From contig CBDHHL010000032.1 of the NCBI GenBank assembly GCA_965263355.1, positions 1,760,001 to 1,824,000 of the forward strand: a stretch of 64,000 nucleotides of DNA, given 5' to 3'. This DNA is from Leptolyngbyaceae cyanobacterium. GTDB lineage: Bacteria; Cyanobacteriota; Cyanobacteriia; Phormidesmidales; Phormidesmidaceae. Each line of letters opens with the position of its first letter. Positions within the stretch are counted from its first letter, which is position 1. The notes beneath the pieces were generated by a model. That model saw nothing but the letters and a program-made list of their open reading frames with translations, was not told the origin of the DNA and ran no database searches. The translations under genes and the position numbers were made by a program. This document shows, piece after piece, positions 8,677-34,753 of this stretch.

Positions 8677-9225
8677 ATGAACTTCCAAAAGGTATTCATA
8701 CTGATAACAGTCTCTTTAGGAGCTGTGTTGATAGTGCCATTTATACCAAAAGCCAGGGCTAGAGGTGATTATTTTCAGCTAACGACAATGTTCCTTGAAC
8801 ATGAAAACAAGTGTTTTGAAGGCAATCGTCTGGCCCCTGAATCAGTGTTAAAGGGCGCAGCTTTTATGGATGATTGCCAAAATGTATCAGGGCAGCTGTG
8901 GAAGAAAATACCGGCTGACAATGGTTATTTTAAGCTGACCACCTTGTTTCTGGAGGGGCAGTATAAATGTCTTGAAGGGAATCAGGTAACCGATGGGTCA
9001 GTCTTAGGAGGTGCAGCCTTTATGGACAATTGTCGCAATGTGTCGAGCCAGCTATGGAAGGTGATGCCGGTCGGTAATGGTTACTATAAACTGACGACAA
9101 TGTTTCTGGAAGGTCAGAATAAGTGTCTTGACGGAAATCGTCTGGCTCCTGAGTCGATGTTGGGAGGGGCTGCCTTTATGAATGATTGTCAGGATGTATC
9201 AGGACAGCTGTGGACAATTAAGTAG
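8677..9225 (+). CDS. secreted ricin-B-like (beta-trefoil) lectin
   Basis: Signal peptide, then three 52-aa repeats each with KCxxG...C..VSxQLW (QxW motif). Confidence 0.75.
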   Translation: MNFQKVFILITVSLGAVLIVPFIPKARARGDYFQLTTMFLEHENKCFEGNRLAPESVLKGAAFMDDCQNVSGQLWKKIPADNGYFKLTTLFLEGQYKCLEGNQVTDGSVLGGAAFMDNCRNVSSQLWKVMPVGNGYYKLTTMFLEGQNKCLDGNRLAPESMLGGAAFMNDCQDVSGQLWTIK

Positions 9226-9475: not shown

Positions 9476-10374
9476 TCAAAGGAGATTCTTTTTTATAACG
9501 CCTGACGTTTCCTGTAATTGCTGCACTAACGACCAAAATATATCAAAATTAGGAATCTGTTTAAGTTCAACCCTGGCTCAATGGCTACGGAGATAGCTTA
9601 AAACACTATTTGTATGGCATTTAACATGGACTTTGGTAGCACCATTGGCAACAGTACTTTGATCCAGGGTTACAGCTTGAAGTTCTGACCAGGGCAAGGT
9701 TTTATTGTTATAAGTGATACCATCAGTACTGAGGCTTAAGGGACCAAACTCGATGGTGTCTCCCTGTTGATAGGCTTGGGTTATTTGTTGCAATTTGTTA
9801 GGAAAGATTTGAGCTTTAACATGGTCGCCCACTTCGTCAAAGCCAGAGACAATCCGTTCGCCCGTTGTCAGTTCAAACTGATATGTGTGTAAGATTTTGC
9901 CACCTTTCAGGCTGGAGCGCATTGTTCCCGTTTGAGACTGTTCAGTCAGCATACCGCCTACTAACAGTGTTGCCAGGGGTATGGCAATATTTTGATCGTA
10001 ATAAATGTCTCGTTTGGTTTGATAGATGTTTTGAATATCGCAGTACAGGATGGCACGATACTGGTGGCGTTTGACAGTTACTAAGCCATAATCATAGAGA
10101 ATTTGACGATCGTGTCGTCGGCCCATGGCTTCATAGGCACCGACTAAACCAATTAGGATGCATAGGCTGAACAGGACATAGTAGGGGGCAGCTGACTAAG
10201 GTCTACGGACTGTGGTGAGCTGAGTACAACCAATAGGATAAAGCTTAAAAAGACGATACCAATGCCTCCGACTGCTAGGGTGAGGCTGATAAATGGGTTT
10301 TTCAGTAAGGGGTAGCGATAGGTGCCGAGGGTATTGCCAAGGGGGTATTGCTGTTCTAGTTGGTCTAGTGTCAT
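9476..10374 (-). pseudogene. DUF6585-like membrane protein, frameshifted and carrying a nonsense codon
   Basis: One extra C in the C5 run (10184-10188) joins ORF 10153-10374 to 9578-10126 via YYVLFSLCILIGLVGAYEA; after TGA (9578-9580) the frame continues ARVELKQIPNFDIFWSLV to a stop at 9476. Confidence 0.7.
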
Positions 10375-10547
10375 GGTGCTGATAGAGGTCAGACGAGATA
10401 TTGGTAGACCCTCAAGCGCAGTTTATCTGGACGGTTTTGGTGAAGTGGTGATGGTTTCTGCCGGATGGATTGTAGAAATCGACAATTATATGGGCTCAGT
10501 ATAGTTGAATATATGGGGCAACGATGGTCTAACAGGTCAATGTAATA

Positions 10548-10682
10548 CTAGTGGTCTGGCAAGCCTAAGATTTTCGGTAAGATGGTTAAAGAGCCAAGAG
10601 TCTAAAGGGATGAAGAGTCACTCTTTACCCGTCACCCTTTATCAGTAACCAACCCGAATTTTTAGCTTTGACGATGCATTAG
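10548..10682 (+). mobile_element. 135-bp MITE-like element, copy 2 (family A)
   Basis: CTAGTGGTCTGGCAAG...TTTGACGATGCATTAG; the terminal TTAG overlaps the stop codon of the TPR ORF. Confidence 0.8.
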
Positions 10683-10990
10683 TCGCTGGGTTCATTATTC
10701 TCTTGAATAGACTGAATTTTCTGAAGAGCATAGTCCTTTAAAGGGGCAACGTTAATCTCTTCGCCAATGGTAGCAGCAGCTTGTAGACTACTGATTGCTT
10801 GTTCGGTTTGGTTAAGGGCTAAGTAGGCATCAGAAATAAACATATATAGGTTTCGTCCCTGGCTATAGCGATCTCCGATTTGACTATAGACTGTTTGAGC
10901 AGTTTGATAGGCTTCCAGGGCTACGTTGGGGTCTTCCTCCAGGCTGCCAATGGCCTGAAGCGTATTGGCTTCGCCGAGGCGAGCACCCAC
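10679..10990 (-). CDS. C-terminal TPR cap of the NB-ARC/TPR protein (detached by the scrambled junction)
   Basis: Begins with the repeat segment GARLGEANTLQAIG, then degenerate TPR-like helices; no independent RBS seen. Confidence 0.7.
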   Translation of the reverse strand: MGARLGEANTLQAIGSLEEDPNVALEAYQTAQTVYSQIGDRYSQGRNLYMFISDAYLALNQTEQAISSLQAAATIGEEINVAPLKDYALQKIQSIQENNEPSD

Positions 10991-11031
10991 CTGGCGATAA
11001 ATGGCGTTCTCGATGGCGTTCTCGTAGTTTT

Positions 11032-14000
11032 CTAAGGCCTCATCTCTGCGGTCGAGAAATTGCCAAGCTTGGACGCTTCGAGGCCAATGGCGATTCTCGA
11101 GTTCTCGTATCTAAGGCGTTTGAGAAATTTCGCTTTGAGCGTATTGGCTTCGCCGAGGCGATCACCCACCTGGCGATAAATCTCGATGGCGTTCTCGTAG
11201 TTTTCTAAGGCCTCACTACTTCGTTTGAGAAATTGCAGCACGTCGCCAATGGCTTTGAGCGTATTGGCTTCGCCGAGGCGAGCACCCACCTGGCGATAAA
11301 TCTCGATGGCGTTCTCGTAGTTTTCTAAGGCCTCATCTCTGCGGTCGAGAAATTGCAGCACGTCGCCAATGGCTTTGAGCGTATTGGCTTCGCCGAGGCG
11401 AGCACCCACCTGGCGATAAATCTCGATGGCGTTCTCGTAGTTTTCTAAGGCCTCACTACTTCGTTTGAGAAATTGCAGCACGTCGCCAATGGCTTTGAGC
11501 GTATTGGCTTCGCCGAGGCGAGCACCCACCTGGCGATAAATCTCGATGGCGTTCTCGTAGTTTTCTAAGGCCTCACTACTTCGTTTGAGAAATTGCAGCA
11601 CGTCGCCAATGGCTTGGAGCGTATTGGCTTCGCCGAGGCGATCACCCACCTGGCGATAAATCTCGATGGCGTTCTCGTAGTTTTCTAAGGCCTCACTACT
11701 TCGTTTGAGAAATTGCAGCACGTCGCCAATGGCTTGGAGCGTATTGGCTTCGCCGAGGCGATCACCCACCTGGCGATAAATCTCGATGGCGTTCTCGTAG
11801 TTTTCTAAGGCCTCATCTCTGCGGTCGAGAAATTGCAGCACGTCGCCAATGGCTTTGAGCGTATTGGCTTCGCCGAGGCGAGCACCCACCTGGCGATAAA
11901 TCTCGATGGCGTTCTCGTAGTTTTCTAAGGCCTCACTACTTCGTTTGAGAAATTGCAGCACGTCGCCAATGGCTTTGAGCGTATTGGCTTCGCCGAGGCG
12001 AGCACCCACCTGGCGATAAATCTCGATGGCGTTCTCGTAGTTTTCTAAGGCCTCACTACTTCGTTTGAGAAATTGCAGCACGTCGCCAATGGCTTGGAGC
12101 GTATTGGCTTCGCCGAGGCGATCACCCACCTGGCGATAAATCTCGATGGCGTTCTCGTAGTTTTCTAAGGCCTCACTACTTCGTTTGAGAAATTGCAGCA
12201 CGTCGCCAATGGCTTTGAGCGTATTGGCTTCGCCGAGGCGAGCACCCACCTGGCGATAAATCTCGATGGCGTTCTCGTAGTTTTCTAAGGCCTCATCTCT
12301 GCGGTTGAGAAATTGCAGCACGTCGCCAATGGCTTTGAGCGTATTGGCTTCGCCGAGGCGAGCACCCACCTGGCGATAAATCTCGATGGCGTTCTCGTAG
12401 TTTTCTAAGGCCTCATCTCTGCGGTCGAGAAATTGCAGCACGTCGCCAATGGCTTGGAGCGTATTGGCTTCGCCGAGGCGAGCACCCACCTGGCGATAAA
12501 TCTCGATGGCGTTCTCGTAGTTTTCTAAGGCCTCATCTCTGCGGTCGAGAAATTGCAGCACGTCGCCAATGGCTTTGAGCGTATTGGCTTCGCCGAGGCG
12601 AGCACCCACCTGGCGATAAATCTCGATGGCGTTCTCGTAGTTTTCTAAGGCCTCATCTCTGCGGTCGAGAAATTGCAGCACGTCGCCAATGGCTTTGAGC
12701 GTATTGGCTTCGCCGAGGCGATCACCCACCTGGCGATAAATCTCGATGGCGTTCTCGTAGTTTTCTAAGGCCTCATCTCTGCGGTCGAGAAATTGCAGCA
12801 CGTCGCCGTATTTCTTCAAAACATCAGCGTATATTCTCTTATCCTCATTTTCGGGAATCCAGCCCCATAAAGCTACCTCGTATAGCTCATGGCGGACCTG
12901 ACTATAGCCCCGTAGCTGTAACACCATATCCAAACTGCTGTAGCGGTCTTCCTCATCCGTATCCTGCCATAGCAAATTCAGGGCTTCGGTGCGTTGCTCT
13001 AACTGGCAGAGATGATAGAAAAGTTCTTTATAGGCAAATGTTTCTGCCAGCTGAGTGCTCGGTCCCAAATATGGCTGCAGCTGGGGCAAATAAAACTTGA
13101 CAGCCTTCTGATGACCATCATTATTTCCATTCCGGTTCAAATATCGCTGAATTAGCGGCTGAAACTGATACTGCCAAAGGCGCTCACCATTAATGGAGTC
13201 TTTTTGGGCCACCAGCAACGATCGTTTGGCCAGCTGCCGCAGTTGCTGATCACTTATCGTGTCGTTTACCATCGCTTGGGCCGCCTTCAGGGTAAACGGC
13301 TGTCGATAGACACTGCTATATTGCAGCACATGCCGTAGCGTTTCCGGTAGCCGCTCTAATGTTGCCTCTAGCAGTTTGGCAATGCTGGTTTCCGGTTGAC
13401 CGCGATGTAACCCAATCAGGTCAAACAGATTCATCCCGCTAATAGTAGTGAGATTATTCACATGGGGGTCGTCTTCGTCGTCGTCAAGCAGCCAGCCCGC
13501 TGACAGTTTCAACAATAGGGGATGCCCCTCTGCTGCATCCACCAGCGTTTGTAACTCTATTTCATTGCCTACTATGTCAAGCTTTTGCAATAAGCTCACT
13601 CCAGCCGGGGTGCTTAGACCATCTACTTGTTGCCATTTACAATAAGGCCGCACATTGGCAGGCAGCTTGGGCTCCTCTCGACTAGTGACTAAAACCTTAC
13701 TAGCACTTTTGCTGCCCAACCACCCTAATAAAAATGTCTCATAGCCGTTATCAATCCAGGTACCATCAGATTGCAGTAATGTTTCCAGGTTGTCTAAAAT
13801 CAGCAAATAGCAACCGACTGACAGTTGATTAATTACCCGATCCGCAAGTTCCTTATTACCTGTCTGGTCATCTACTGCCAGATTAAAGTGAGCTAAAAAC
13901 CATCGCCCCCAGATTGCAAACGAATAGGGCTGGTTAAACGAAATGGCCAGGGTAAATTTTATTCTATGTTCTACTCTTTGACACTGCTCCTTAATGATTT

Positions 14001-14193
14001 CTGCCAAAGCCGATTTGCCAAAGCCCCCAGCACCTTTAAGGCCGATCAGCTGTATGGCATCCTTTGTTAGCCAGGTGTGTAAATTTTCCAGCTCAGTCTC
14101 TCGCCCCTGCCAGTGACGGGTATCGGGACGAAAGTTGGGGCTAATAAAATCATCCGGGTTTAACGTTGGCTGGACCGCTCCAGACGACTCTAG
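11032..14193 (-). CDS. NB-ARC (STAND) ATPase + TPR repeats, NLR-like; frame open back to the TAG at 14194-14196
   Basis: WQGRETEL, Walker A GAGGFGKS (14011-14034, upstream of the ORF-track start at 14007), Walker B LLILDNLE, VLVTSRE, GHPLLL, then 14 x 40-aa TPRs. Confidence 0.9.
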   Translation of the reverse strand, partial: LESSGAVQPTLNPDDFISPNFRPDTRHWQGRETELENLHTWLTKDAIQLIGLKGAGGFGKSALAEIIKEQCQRVEHRIKFTLAISFNQPYSFAIWGRWFLAHFNLAVDDQTGNKELADRVINQLSVGCYLLILDNLETLLQSDGTWIDNGYETFLLGWLGSKSASKVLVTSREEPKLPANVRPYCKWQQVDGLSTPAGVSLLQKLDIVGNEIELQTLVDAAEGHPLLLKLSAGWLLDDDEDDPHVNNLTTISGMNLFDLIGLHRGQPETSIAKLLEATLERLPETLRHVLQYSSVYRQPFTLKAAQAMVNDTISDQQLRQLAKRSLLVAQKDSINGERLWQYQFQPLIQRYLNRNGNNDGHQKAVKFYLPQLQPYLGPSTQLAETFAYKELFYHLCQLEQRTEALNLLWQDTDEEDRYSSLDMVLQLRGYSQVRHELYEVALWGWIPENEDKRIYADVLKKYGDVLQFLDRRDEALENYENAIEIYRQVGDRLGEANTLKAIGDVLQFLDRRDEALENYENAIEIYRQVGARLGEANTLKAIGDVLQFLDRRDEALENYENAIEIYRQVGARLGEANTLQAIGDVLQFLDRRDEALENYENAIEIYRQVGARLGEANTLKAIGDVLQFLNRRDEALENYENAIEIYRQVGARLGEANTLKAIGDVLQFLKRSSEALENYENAIEIYRQVGDRLGEANTLQAIGDVLQFLKRSSEALENYENAIEIYRQVGARLGEANTLKAIGDVLQFLKRSSEALENYENAIEIYRQVGARLGEANTLKAIGDVLQFLDRRDEALENYENAIEIYRQVGDRLGEANTLQAIGDVLQFLKRSSEALENYENAIEIYRQVGDRLGEANTLQAIGDVLQFLKRSSEALENYENAIEIYRQVGARLGEANTLKAIGDVLQFLKRSSEALENYENAIEIYRQVGARLGEANTLKAIGDVLQFLDRRDEALENYENAIEIYRQVGARLGEANTLKAIGDVLQFLKRSSEALENYENAIEIYRQVGDRLGEANTLKAKFLKRLRYENSRIAIGLEASKLGNFSTAEMRP
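11132..12807 (-). repeat. tandem array of 14 near-identical 120-bp units encoding 40-aa TPRs
   Basis: Exact 120-bp period visible in the DNA; variation only at DRRD/NRRD/KRSS, D/A and K/Q. Confidence 0.97.
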
Positions 14194-14649
14194 CTAATCG
14201 GTTTTCTGAACATAAGTAATATTTTGAGTACCGCCAATGTAGTTGGTGCTGTTATTTCCGTCGATCTGGTTAATATAGCCCGTAGCGTTGTCGTGGATAT
14301 TTTGCACAGTCGAGCTATTGTCGTTAACCTTGCCAAGGTTAATTTCCTGACCCAGCAGCGTTAGTTCATTAGCAAACTGCGGATCTTCCCGCATGGCAAT
14401 CTTCAAATAATCGGAAACGGCCTCCAGGTCTTCTGTATTACCTTGACTGGCTTCTAACCGTTTTGCTGCATTTACCGCCGGAGCGTTGCCCGTCAGTCGC
14501 GTCATAATTTTCTGGCGCAGCTCCTCCATTTTACCCAGGGCCGCTTCGGTAAATTTCTTGGCTGTTTCCCCTGCCGCCGTTTCCAAAAATTTCTTAAATG
14601 CCAACTCTGTGAGGGCTGATGCTGTGAATGTAGCGACCGGTCCGACCAT
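14194..14649 (-). CDS. Bell-like helical effector domain with C-terminal amyloid-like (BASS-type) motif
   Basis: ATG at 14649 preceded by GAAGGT; TASALTELAFKKFLETAAGETAKKFTEAAL...AMREDPQFANEL helical domain; tail NDNSSTVQNIHDNATGYINQIDGNNSTNYIGGTQNITY; in frame with the downstream NB-ARC. Confidence 0.7.
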   Translation of the reverse strand: MVGPVATFTASALTELAFKKFLETAAGETAKKFTEAALGKMEELRQKIMTRLTGNAPAVNAAKRLEASQGNTEDLEAVSDYLKIAMREDPQFANELTLLGQEINLGKVNDNSSTVQNIHDNATGYINQIDGNNSTNYIGGTQNITYVQKTD

Positions 14650-14754
14650 CGTGATAACCTTCAGATACTTCAATCAGTTTCGTTATAACTTAACAATCCT
14701 GATATCGGTAATTCCTGAAAGTTTTTGATAGGGTTTACAGTTTATTGCCATAGT

Positions 14755-15327
14755 TTATTGCCATGTTTCGATATCTGGCCGTAGGGGGTCCTTTAGTTGA
14801 AAGCCACCGGACATCCATGACCAAAAGTCAGGAGCGTGTAGAGCCATTCGTCTGATCGCGTAATCTGGCAAGACAAAGACCATTAGATACGGCAGTTGAA
14901 GGGTAAATACATCACGAACCCAGTTAAGATTTACTAAAAATGGCGGATATTCTCCCTTTTTACCAATCGAATTTTCTAATCCTTGCAAGATAAATACTAG
15001 CTTTTTGCCGTTGGCCTGCTTGATAACGGTTGGTAGTACAGCTTTAATTTCGGGTATCAAATAGCGGAGCTGAGGATTGTTGAACTTTAAGGTTTCAAAA
15101 TGGATGTTGTGGCAGCGTGGATGGTGTTGAAGATGATCGGCAATACCATTTATGTCCCAGGAGACTATATTCCAGGATAAACTGACTGCGATAAAGCCTA
15201 GGGTGAATCCCTCTGAGAAATCAGCAAAAACAGCTAGTTCATTGAGTGTTTTTACATTTAATTTTAAAAACTCAGTAGATAAAGAAGTGTTTAATCTCTC
15301 TTGCATGTGGTGATGATTTTGCCTCAC
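14755..15327 (-). CDS. isolated 'APDFW'-type N-terminal domain of cyanobacterial TPR proteins (probably truncated)
   Basis: LNWVRD...LPDYAIRRMALHAPDFWSW motif; ORF ends shortly afterwards, without TPRs. Confidence 0.55.
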   Translation of the reverse strand: MRQNHHHMQERLNTSLSTEFLKLNVKTLNELAVFADFSEGFTLGFIAVSLSWNIVSWDINGIADHLQHHPRCHNIHFETLKFNNPQLRYLIPEIKAVLPTVIKQANGKKLVFILQGLENSIGKKGEYPPFLVNLNWVRDVFTLQLPYLMVFVLPDYAIRRMALHAPDFWSWMSGGFQLKDPLRPDIETWQ

Positions 15328-15488
15328 AGAGCAAATTTTATCAAACTTCCGTTTCTTGAATTCGTTGAACGTTGGGTAACTATAGATATCAGCTACCTCA
15401 GTCTATTCCTTCTTTGTCCATCCCCCCCCACAGAGATCACTATGTCCCATACAATGAAATTAAACCCAGTGCGAACACCAGACAGGCC

Positions 15489-21952: not shown

Positions 21953-23004
21953 ATGAAAAATAGCTTGCAGTGGCATAGACCGTCGGGGCCTTGGATACTA
22001 AGTACCTGTTTTCTAGCGGGCGCTGCCTTTAGCTGGAATCCACCAGTAAAGGCCGACAGTTTTGTGGTTCCTGACAATACCTTAGGAGCAGAAAATTCAG
22101 TCGTAAATGAGCTAGATGGCCTAACGCAGATCGTTGAGGGCGGTGCCATCCGAGAGAGTAATCTTTTCCATAACTTTTTAGAGTTTAACGTCGCCGACAG
22201 TCATGCGGTGTACTTTGCCAACCCGGTAACGGTTGAGTCAATTCTGACACGGGTAACCGGGGATAACCCATCGACTATTTTGGGCCGATTGGGAGTACTG
22301 GGGGACGCCGATCTGTTTTTACTAAATCCCAATGGCATTGTATTTGGCGAAGGGGACTTTCCATTACCACTAACAATCTTTCCGTACAGAATGGTGCCTC
22401 ATTAGGTGCTAGCACGTTTGGCCAGGGTAACTCAGGGCCAGTAGAGATTGTGGCAACAGGCGACATTGTGGTCGATGGCGCAGATTCTTTTCTTACTAGT
22501 GCAGTTAACTCGAGTGCAGCCGGTAATAGTGGCGGTATTTCTATCATCACTGACAATCTCTCTGTACTCAACGATGCAACAGTTACTGCCAGCACATTTG
22601 GTGAGGGTAACTCAGGGCCAGTAGAGATTGTGGCAACAGGCGATATTGTGGTCGATGGCGCAGATTCTTTTCTTACTAGTGCAGTTAACTCGAGTGCAGC
22701 CGATAATAGTGGCGGTATTTCTATCATCACTGACAATCTCTCCGCCTTAAATGGGGCTGCTGTAACCACTCGTACAGACAACGATGGGACGGCTGGCGTT
22801 TTAAGCTTACAATCTAATCCCAATGCTGACCTGACTATTGTGTTATCAGAAGGGGTCTCCATTAACGCCCTGACCAATAGTCCGGAAGATGGAGGCGATC
22901 TAATTATCAGCAGTGGTGGTGCGCTGACAATTCAAGGCCCAGGTAAACTGACCACTGAAAGTGAGGTGGCTCTATCTCGCCCAGGGTTCAAAACCCAGGG
23001 CTAA
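21953..23004 (+). pseudogene. filamentous haemagglutinin (TpsA) family protein, internally deleted, frameshifted and truncated
   Basis: Secretion domain NLFHNF...ILTRVTG...LLNPNGIVFG; frame switches near 22355 into ITTNNLSV repeats; ends at a palindromic element near 22978-23004. Confidence 0.8.
22408..22742 (+). repeat. 180-bp tandem repeat (about 2 units) in the haemagglutinin remnant
   Basis: GGTAACTCAGGGCCAGTAGAGATTGTGGCAACAGGCGA... repeated at a 180-bp offset. Confidence 0.9.
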
Positions 23005-34619: not shown

Positions 34620-34753
34620 TTTTATCATGCAAAAGCTAAAGATTTGGGTTGGTTATTGGTGAAGAGTTGAGGGTAAAGAGTGACTCTTCATCCCTTTAGA
34701 TTCTTTACTCTTTACCCGTCTTACCGGAAATCTTAGGCTTGACAGACCACTAG
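34620..34753 (-). mobile_element. 135-bp MITE-like element, copy 3 (family A; left end degenerate)
   Basis: Reverse complement starts CTAGTGGTCTGTCAAGCCTAAGATTTCCGGTAAGACGGGTAAAGAG. Confidence 0.75.

Follow-up and report, generated by a model that had tools for sequence, protein, structure and literature searches.

We analysed a stretch of 64,000 nucleotides from a Leptolyngbyaceae cyanobacterium (GCA_965263355.1, contig CBDHHL010000032.1, positions 1,760,001 to 1,824,000; hereafter the window), which carries on its minus strand an NLR-like gene with a tandem array of TPR units. Variants at three sites of these units have likely been shuffled, and the receptor is likely made by readthrough of a conserved stop codon located behind a predicted cell-killing domain, a reading to which we assign a probability of about 0.62. 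Taken alone, the array is a good bacterial example of a pattern known from fungi, and one to be expected. The surprise lies upstream of it, beyond what a first-pass annotation of this DNA had described: a stop codon and a hairpin that join the receptor gene to an effector. From the 5' end of the gene, the features are as follows (ORF, open reading frame).

14335..14649, minus strand: effector domain, Bell-like and helical (residues 1-105 of a 151-residue ORF), from an AlphaFold2 model and named after its architecture.
14197..14310, minus strand: tail rich in N, Q, G and T, a predicted amyloid signalling motif, from composition and a tail profile.
14194..14196, minus strand: in-frame TAG separating the effector from the NLR, without difference in contigs of the read runs X1, X2 and X3.
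14168..14193, minus strand: predicted readthrough signal, an 8-nucleotide spacer (14186-14193) followed by a hairpin, from covariation; no Rfam match.
12808..14193, minus strand: linker, NB-ARC domain (about 14103-13558) and helical region, from Pfam (NB-ARC, E 2.5e-9) and a start-codon scan.
11125..12804, minus strand: 14 clean 40-residue TPR units of LGN/Pins type with three variable sites, from unit cutting and Pfam.
11064..11132, minus strand: a further KRSS..Q unit riddled with deletions, probably an assembly fault that appears as a frameshift, from alignment and read contigs.
10679..11063, minus strand: last unit (DRRD-A-Q) and the C-terminal cap helices, ending at the likely true stop; the same cap is present in relatives' proteins.

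The effector ORF comprises 151 codons and ends in TAG, directly after which the NLR frame begins. Both ORFs thus lie in one frame, split by a single stop, and contigs from X1, X2 and X3 confirm the TAG at 14194-14196. Among related loci (the 44 best of 80 GTDB loci examined), the effector ORF ends in frame at the same place in 28; with the window included, the stop is TGA in 23 cases, TAG in 5 and TAA in 1, and the bases that follow it are conserved, third codon positions included. In 401 cyanobacterial genomes, one stop was present in each listed match spanning the small ORF to the Walker A motif (a further 252 weaker matches stand outside that list); one of the listed matches, L141, is an ordinary two-gene locus. 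On a tree of NB-ARC domains, 36 from signal-bearing and 15 from two-gene loci, the layout changes at least 4-5 times and TAG arises in three separate places, the nearest relatives of the window gene being loci from marine Leptolyngbyaceae-type cyanobacteria. The stop at 14194-14196 and the loss of frame after unit 14 would also be expected of a pseudogene hit by a nonsense mutation and a frameshift, but this explanation deserves almost no credence, since the stop is conserved over many genera, with exchange among TGA, TAG and TAA, and no contig supports the frameshift.

The NLR frame has no evident start of its own. No ATG, GTG or TTG precedes the Walker A motif in the window, and only an ATT precedes the WQGR motif. 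NLRs of signal-bearing loci lack the tail motif, whereas those of two-gene loci possess their own ATG and their own copy of it; only translation through the stop would therefore provide the signal-type NLR with a motif. Alternatively, the NLR could be a separate protein, made by re-initiation or from a weak internal start, the hairpin tuning translational coupling or mRNA processing without any fusion. In 30 of 48 loci the codon after the stop is indeed CTG, starts of this kind are annotated in databases (P0007 and P0073 begin with MESS), and some ATG, GTG or TTG occurs further on in many loci. However, the codon after the stop is mostly not a start (besides CTG or GTG it is CTA, CCG, CCA, CTC or AAG in many loci), the window offers its ATT alone, the resulting NLR would be devoid of the motif that two-gene NLRs carry, and alleles with a sense codon keep the linker in frame, all of which makes re-initiation unlikely in our view. 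Such alleles comprise a TGT at the stop position, with the linker kept, in L310, a fused hydrolase-NTPase gene from a metagenome, and W, C and E before the same linker in P0204, P0217 and P0094 (3 of the 150 best library proteins); the latter residues were read from the proteins only, and an alternative code in gene calling is possible. As a separate observation, P0094 consists of a Bell domain, tail, sense codon and signal linker followed by a membrane helix and a GUN4 domain, not an NTPase.

Downstream of the stop, after the 8-nucleotide spacer, bases +9 to +13 pair with +22 to +26. Both-sided changes in this stem amounted to 35 cells, compared to 11.7 in shuffles (0/500; 41 sequences). Of 48 Bell ORFs followed by an in-frame Walker A, a set that includes the loci on which the stem was defined, 43 have the full 5-bp stem. 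Among 29 other Bell ORFs a single one has it (L147, in which the signal precedes a broken NLR frame), as do 1791 of 99441 background stops (1.8%). In 68 representatives less than 85% identical, which include model hits selected for pairing, the two strongest covarying column pairs are stem pairs, at 0.89 and 0.78, the next reaching 0.20. These data place a covarying structure 8 nucleotides after the stop, despite RNAalifold, which returned no consensus fold on the first alignment.

A covariance model of the signal yielded 20 matches with E <0.001 in 151 genomes, 8 of which belong to the training set. The 12 new matches are all located at a TGA ending a Bell-like ORF, and 11 precede a long ORF in the same frame, which in some cases looks by eye like a NACHT type. 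In the family of genome G004, 39 of 150 genomes match the model, with 52 matches in total; the 30 examined (4 from training) all lie at a stop ending a Bell-like ORF, TGA in 19 and TAG in 11, and 29 have an in-frame Walker A. With a DNA pattern agnostic of the stop, a stop precedes 62 of 66 metagenome matches (50 TGA, 12 TAG), the other four being one after TGT and three that apparently occurred by chance. In the phylum sample, none of 13 inspected among 19 weaker matches (E 0.003-0.09) displayed a Bell-stop-NLR context, five Chloroflexota-type genomes gave a single weak RNA-model match (E 0.025), none of the four matches in a viral scan follows a stop, and Rfam returned no match to the signal. 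The signal is also found 3' of TIR and alpha/beta-hydrolase domains, and it occurs on plasmid gamma of Nostoc PCC 7120 and on four Acaryochloris plasmids. Two variants of the locus were observed in passing. The hairpin loop measures 9 or 11 nucleotides instead of 8 in L006, L007, L009, L189, L190 and L193, with the frame kept, and in L147, L191, L213, L268, L273 and L289 the signal is present while the NLR frame is broken within 16-70 codons, by decay or assembly faults.

Judging from these sequences, programmed readthrough appears the likeliest mechanism. A C after the stop weakens termination, and TAA is the tightest stop. The stop could instead be recoded by adenosine-to-inosine editing of the mRNA (TGA and TAG to Trp), or be read only under conditions such as phage infection, with the hairpin as recognition site. 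TAA, for which two edits would be needed, hardly occurs (0 of 122 elements, and one signal-bearing locus, L009), and an allele with W exists (P0204); yet the rarity of TAA is equally explained by readthrough, a signal acting at the ribosome agrees with the fixed 8-nucleotide spacer and with the conservation of C after the stop, and no editing enzyme came to light, no search having been aimed at one. We consider editing very improbable. Two further candidates were rejected. Bacterial selenocysteine insertion relies on a UGA with a downstream SECIS (selenocysteine insertion sequence) hairpin. The loci share with it an in-frame UGA followed by a hairpin, but TAG is used in several lineages (11 of 30 loci examined), and selA was not found in any of five carrier genomes, which may be incomplete. 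As for frameshifting at the stop, a +1 or -1 shift meets a stop after 0 and 14 codons.

The closest precedents are viral. Murine leukaemia virus (MuLV) gag-pol, with a stop, an eight-nucleotide spacer and a pseudoknot, and the coat gene of phage Qbeta have the same arrangement of two in-frame ORFs and one stop (PMC13517186). The likeness to MuLV resides in the 8-nucleotide spacer and the structure downstream of it, and the short product of the window gene is likewise predicted to be abundant and the fusion rare. As opposed to MuLV, the window locus is a cellular bacterial immune gene with a 5-bp stem, its second stem is weakly supported, its family uses TGA and TAG, and readthrough is what we infer from sequence. 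No description of the stop-plus-hairpin signal was found in the literature, including PMC7918605, PMC13581612 and PMC8195603; subscription papers, figures and bioRxiv supplements (such as Table S2 of Dyrka et al.) lay outside this scope and may bear on the point.

Under programmed readthrough, most ribosomes would stop at the TAG and release the 151-residue effector with its amyloid-type tail, and a minority, aided by the weak stop context and the hairpin 8 nucleotides downstream, would continue to produce an effector-tail-NB-ARC-TPR protein. Binding of a foreign ligand would then cause the receptor to oligomerise, and the receptor tails would seed amyloid, recruiting the abundant free effector and killing the infected cell. 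Because the same DNA encodes both, the motifs of receptor and effector would, in this proposal, always match.

The AlphaFold2 model of the effector displays six helices, with a predicted local distance difference test (pLDDT) score mostly of 70-90 over residues 11-109 and a low-confidence tail. The name Bell-like derives from the architecture, an effector and tail beside an NLR gene, the searched profile libraries containing no Bell profile; side matches comprised two weak single-member hits in PADLOC and unnamed cyanobacterial clusters in the Atlas. Across the family, the tail consists of 19% N, 13% G, 13% T and 12% Q, and when 19 NLRs from two-gene loci were compared with a profile of these tails, 4 matched at the N-terminus (E up to 1.1e-4). 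A word-index search for longer Bell proteins retrieved one protein, which is weak evidence. The described Bell/BASS-NLR pairs, resembling the predicted layout of the window locus, combine a helical domain of about 100 residues, a G/N/Q-rich tail and an adjoining NB-ARC/TPR gene, and are cyanobacterial (10.1101/2020.01.06.895854). The tail motif of the window is of a type that is paired in two-gene relatives, and TIR or alpha/beta-hydrolase domains can replace the effector. By contrast with these pairs, the window NLR has neither its own start nor its own copy of the motif, and one frame is split by a stop and a conserved hairpin; the main texts of 10.1101/2020.01.06.895854 and 10.1101/2024.11.07.622273, in their accessible parts, mention neither readthrough nor stop codons. 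Cell death of Bell type and amyloid signalling were shown in E. coli for Bab/Agp (10.1101/2024.11.07.622273), and by analogy the window protein may act in the same way.

We then turn to the receptor's repeats. Tandem Repeats Finder delineates 14.0 copies of 120 bp at 11132-12807, and the units are spaced by exactly 120 bp on the minus strand, unit 1 starting at 12804 and unit 14 at 11244. Pfam matches in the product are NB-ARC followed by TPR_12, as in an NB-ARC/TPR NLR-like protein, and the unit is a 40-residue TPR of LGN/Pins type. Identity between units exceeds 85% across at least 100 residues, as in high-internal-conservation repeats. Only 8 of the 120 columns vary: 19, 21, 24, 27, 28 and 29 form site 1 (DRRD, KRSS or NRRD), 83 is the D/A site and 109 the K/Q site. 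Cutting the minus strand reproduced exactly, in gene order, the 14-unit list and three-site code of the first-pass annotation. Its statement that the units hold no independent synonymous difference also stood, the sole synonymous column, 24, being linked within the DRRD/KRSS block. All four gametes are present for each of the three pairs of sites, in agreement with its claim that all four D/A x K/Q combinations occur and imply recombination between units. The proposed 480-bp duplication of units 6-9 as 10-13 was marginal: the two blocks share a run of 10 identical sites (P 0.050 when sites and 0.042 when whole units are shuffled; 20,000 shuffles). A single-sequence AlphaFold2 model of the TPR units was discarded, with a pLDDT of 64 and helix breaks that fall out of the TPR register.

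The array was compared with reads as assembled contigs, at both of its ends. The region is found mostly in runs X1, X2 and X3, with small shares in X4 and X5; X4 is mainly repeat and was not used as evidence. In X1, each of the contigs carrying D, A or Q terminates at the base adjoining the neighbouring variable site. They thus break where an assembly graph would branch, from which all four D/A x K/Q links would be present in the reads. Unit 1, which adjoins unique DNA within one word length, is DRRD in the window and in an X3 contig and KRSS in an X2 contig; an X1 contig matches all 2614 flanking bases (12787-15400) and departs from the window at the unit 1 site. The depth of repeat contigs in X1 is 155-160 compared to 10.7-11.4 for the unique flanks, a ratio of about 14-fold that is only a rough hint. 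The NRRD variant is not among the contig differences, which concern the array ends, and is thus unverified. On the 3' side of the gene, at 9800-10493, the contig in X1 and X3 is about twice as deep as those of the NLR gene, departs from the window in 7-8 letters and leaves it after 10493; it possibly stems from a second strain without the NLR at this place.

No clean end was found at unit 14, where the first-pass annotation had closed the array. No contig covers 11105-11135, and a 6-bp duplication at 11002 is absent from the contigs. The segment at about 11064-11132 aligns, with deletions only and no mismatch, to one more KRSS..Q unit, followed by a DRRD-A-Q unit and the cap helix. The deletion-only alignment and the lack of contig support suggest that the apparent frameshift is an assembly fault. 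From its sequence, the gene is likely intact, with about 16 units and a frame open to the stop at 10679.

These faults raise the question of whether the variant pattern is mainly an assembly product, that is, a mixed-strain consensus in which site states were scrambled between units. The junction after unit 14 is faulty, the runs hold mixtures of strains (broken contigs and a second haplotype), and short reads are known to misassemble repeat arrays of this sort, with chimeric repeats (PMC11761791). The break points of the contigs, by contrast, imply all four combinations in the reads, the roughly 14-fold depth in X1 gives a hint in the same direction, and the arrays of relatives show the same mixing. 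We therefore regard this explanation as quite improbable for the pattern as a whole: it likely holds for the exact unit order, which is not reliable as assembled, and not for the shuffling. Variants at the three sites have likely been shuffled by recombination within the gene.

The related arrays hold 1-10 assembled units with a DNA identity of 0.90-0.99, share an alphabet of DRR/KRS, D/A/S and K/Q/R/I and, unlike the window, contain synonymous differences. Of the 11 arrays in which at least 3 units can be compared, 10, 9, 11 and 10 vary at positions 7, 9, 28 and 37, respectively, and 6 at position 10; every other position varies in at most 4. The hot spots of the window thus recur in 9-11 of these arrays. 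Proteins with an identical NB-ARC domain differ in unit number or order in two clusters (P0012/P0074 and P0014/P0081; 4 against 9 and 4 against 5 units), differences that short-read assembly could fake, and have identical arrays in a third (P0009/P0073). Donor copies of the 120-bp unit in other genes, for which the first-pass annotation had proposed a search, were not found: outside its own array the unit does not occur in the relatives G001, G002 and G003, nor in G222, and G288 holds two pieces at contig ends. Many related loci stop at a contig edge within the TPR array, and database versions of this NLR family are consequently often truncated or collapsed. In L024, L029, L027 and L032-L042, members of the same NB-ARC clade are fused without a stop to N-termini that look by eye protease-like, CHAT-like or helix-turn-helix-like.

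The first-pass annotation expected the variable residues on a ligand-binding surface; one of the three sites maps to such a place. In the Pfam TPR_1 register, K/Q occupies TPR position 5, in the groove, and the other two sites occupy the loop positions 15-18 and 36. Unequal crossing-over could turn the array over while the three sites represent tolerated surface variation, kept by recombination and devoid of any specificity code. This view, on balance somewhat unlikely, fits the two loop sites, which are outside the binding positions of HOP-type TPRs, the small alphabet that is the same across distant genera, and the fact that the array's ligand is still to be named. It is less compatible with the same three amino-acid-changing sites varying in 9-11 of 11 arrays, most other surface positions being fixed, and with position 5 being among the hypervariable concave binding positions of Magliery and Regan (PMC1261162). 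If the three sites do form a code, recombination would alter specificity.

The likeness to fungal het-type repeats drawn by the first-pass annotation was upheld. As in the window, fungal NLRs (the WD40 repeats of Podospora het-d/het-e/NWD, and TPR proteins such as Pa_2_10340) combine NB-ARC with near-identical repeats, few variable codons, mixed units and difficult assembly (PMC4986451, PMC11761791). The window gene differs in being bacterial, in its 40-residue LGN/Pins-type unit and in the absence of exchange partners elsewhere in three related genomes; moreover, only one of its three sites maps to the concave helix face, compared to all selected sites in fungal TPR arrays (PMC4986451). Dyrka et al. 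had already pointed out repeats of this conserved kind among bacterial NLRs and proposed the same regime for them (10.1101/2020.01.06.895854). With the fungal precedent, this makes the array a real bacterial case of a known pattern.

Several results weigh against a readthrough receptor with a shuffled array. The stem comprises just 5-6 bp, and the window's own copy forms 4 of 5 pairs with one mismatch. To this add the RNAalifold null and the composition of the two sets in which the stem was counted. The second, pseudoknot stem is paired in 65-69% of cases, with weak covariation; where compared directly, pairing reached 66%, against 58% in shuffles and up to 58% when slid. The effector has no match in Pfam, PADLOC or PDB and a best Z of 4.4 in a fold search, although the absence of matches does not show a new fold. 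For the array, X1 and X3 are one sample, possibly the window's own source; the D variant accounts for 45% of contig depth in X1 and 55% in X2, compared to 5 of 14 window units; two of the three variable sites are outside the canonical groove positions; and two Nostoc strains share an identical 10-unit order, indicating that arrays can be stable. Finally, since the assembly is faulty inside the array, the unit order and the higher-order duplication are weaker than had been claimed. A wider proposal is more tentative, and we hold it at slightly less than even odds: in cyanobacteria, a portable RNA recoding signal (stop, 8-nucleotide spacer, hairpin or pseudoknot) would let a single gene supply both halves of an amyloid-signalling immune system; effectors (Bell, TIR, hydrolase) and receptors (NB-ARC, NACHT) would be interchangeable, and in the window's family a three-site TPR code would be reshuffled in living populations.

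The surroundings of the gene hold several other elements. An element of about 135 bp, resembling a miniature inverted-repeat transposable element with imperfect inverted ends, is present in three copies about 87% alike (10548-10683, 57-190 and 34632-34753), one of them directly behind the NLR stop, and many more copies occur in the run contigs. Just upstream of the effector, on the same strand, 14755-15327 holds a 190-residue ORF that Pfam does not match and that may be what is left of a larger gene. A secreted-looking protein with three 52-residue repeats and a weak match to ricin-type beta-trefoil lectins is encoded at 8677-9225, and a filamentous-haemagglutinin-like gene lies in pieces at 21953-23004 and includes a 180-bp tandem repeat (22407-22742).

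Viruses offer well-known examples of readthrough programmed by RNA structure; a conserved case in a widespread family of bacterial immune genes would, if true, be a new form of recoding in cells. Amyloid signalling would then have a third architecture, beside the two-gene and all-in-one forms, in which the ratio of effector to receptor is fixed and the motifs are kept matched. These NLRs are currently annotated with inconsistent, guessed starts. The idea can be tested in Nostoc sp. PCC 7120 (plasmid gamma, RS01205/RS01200) and in Acaryochloris marina MBIC11017, and the small alphabet common to the family makes repeat-encoded specificity easy to test as well.

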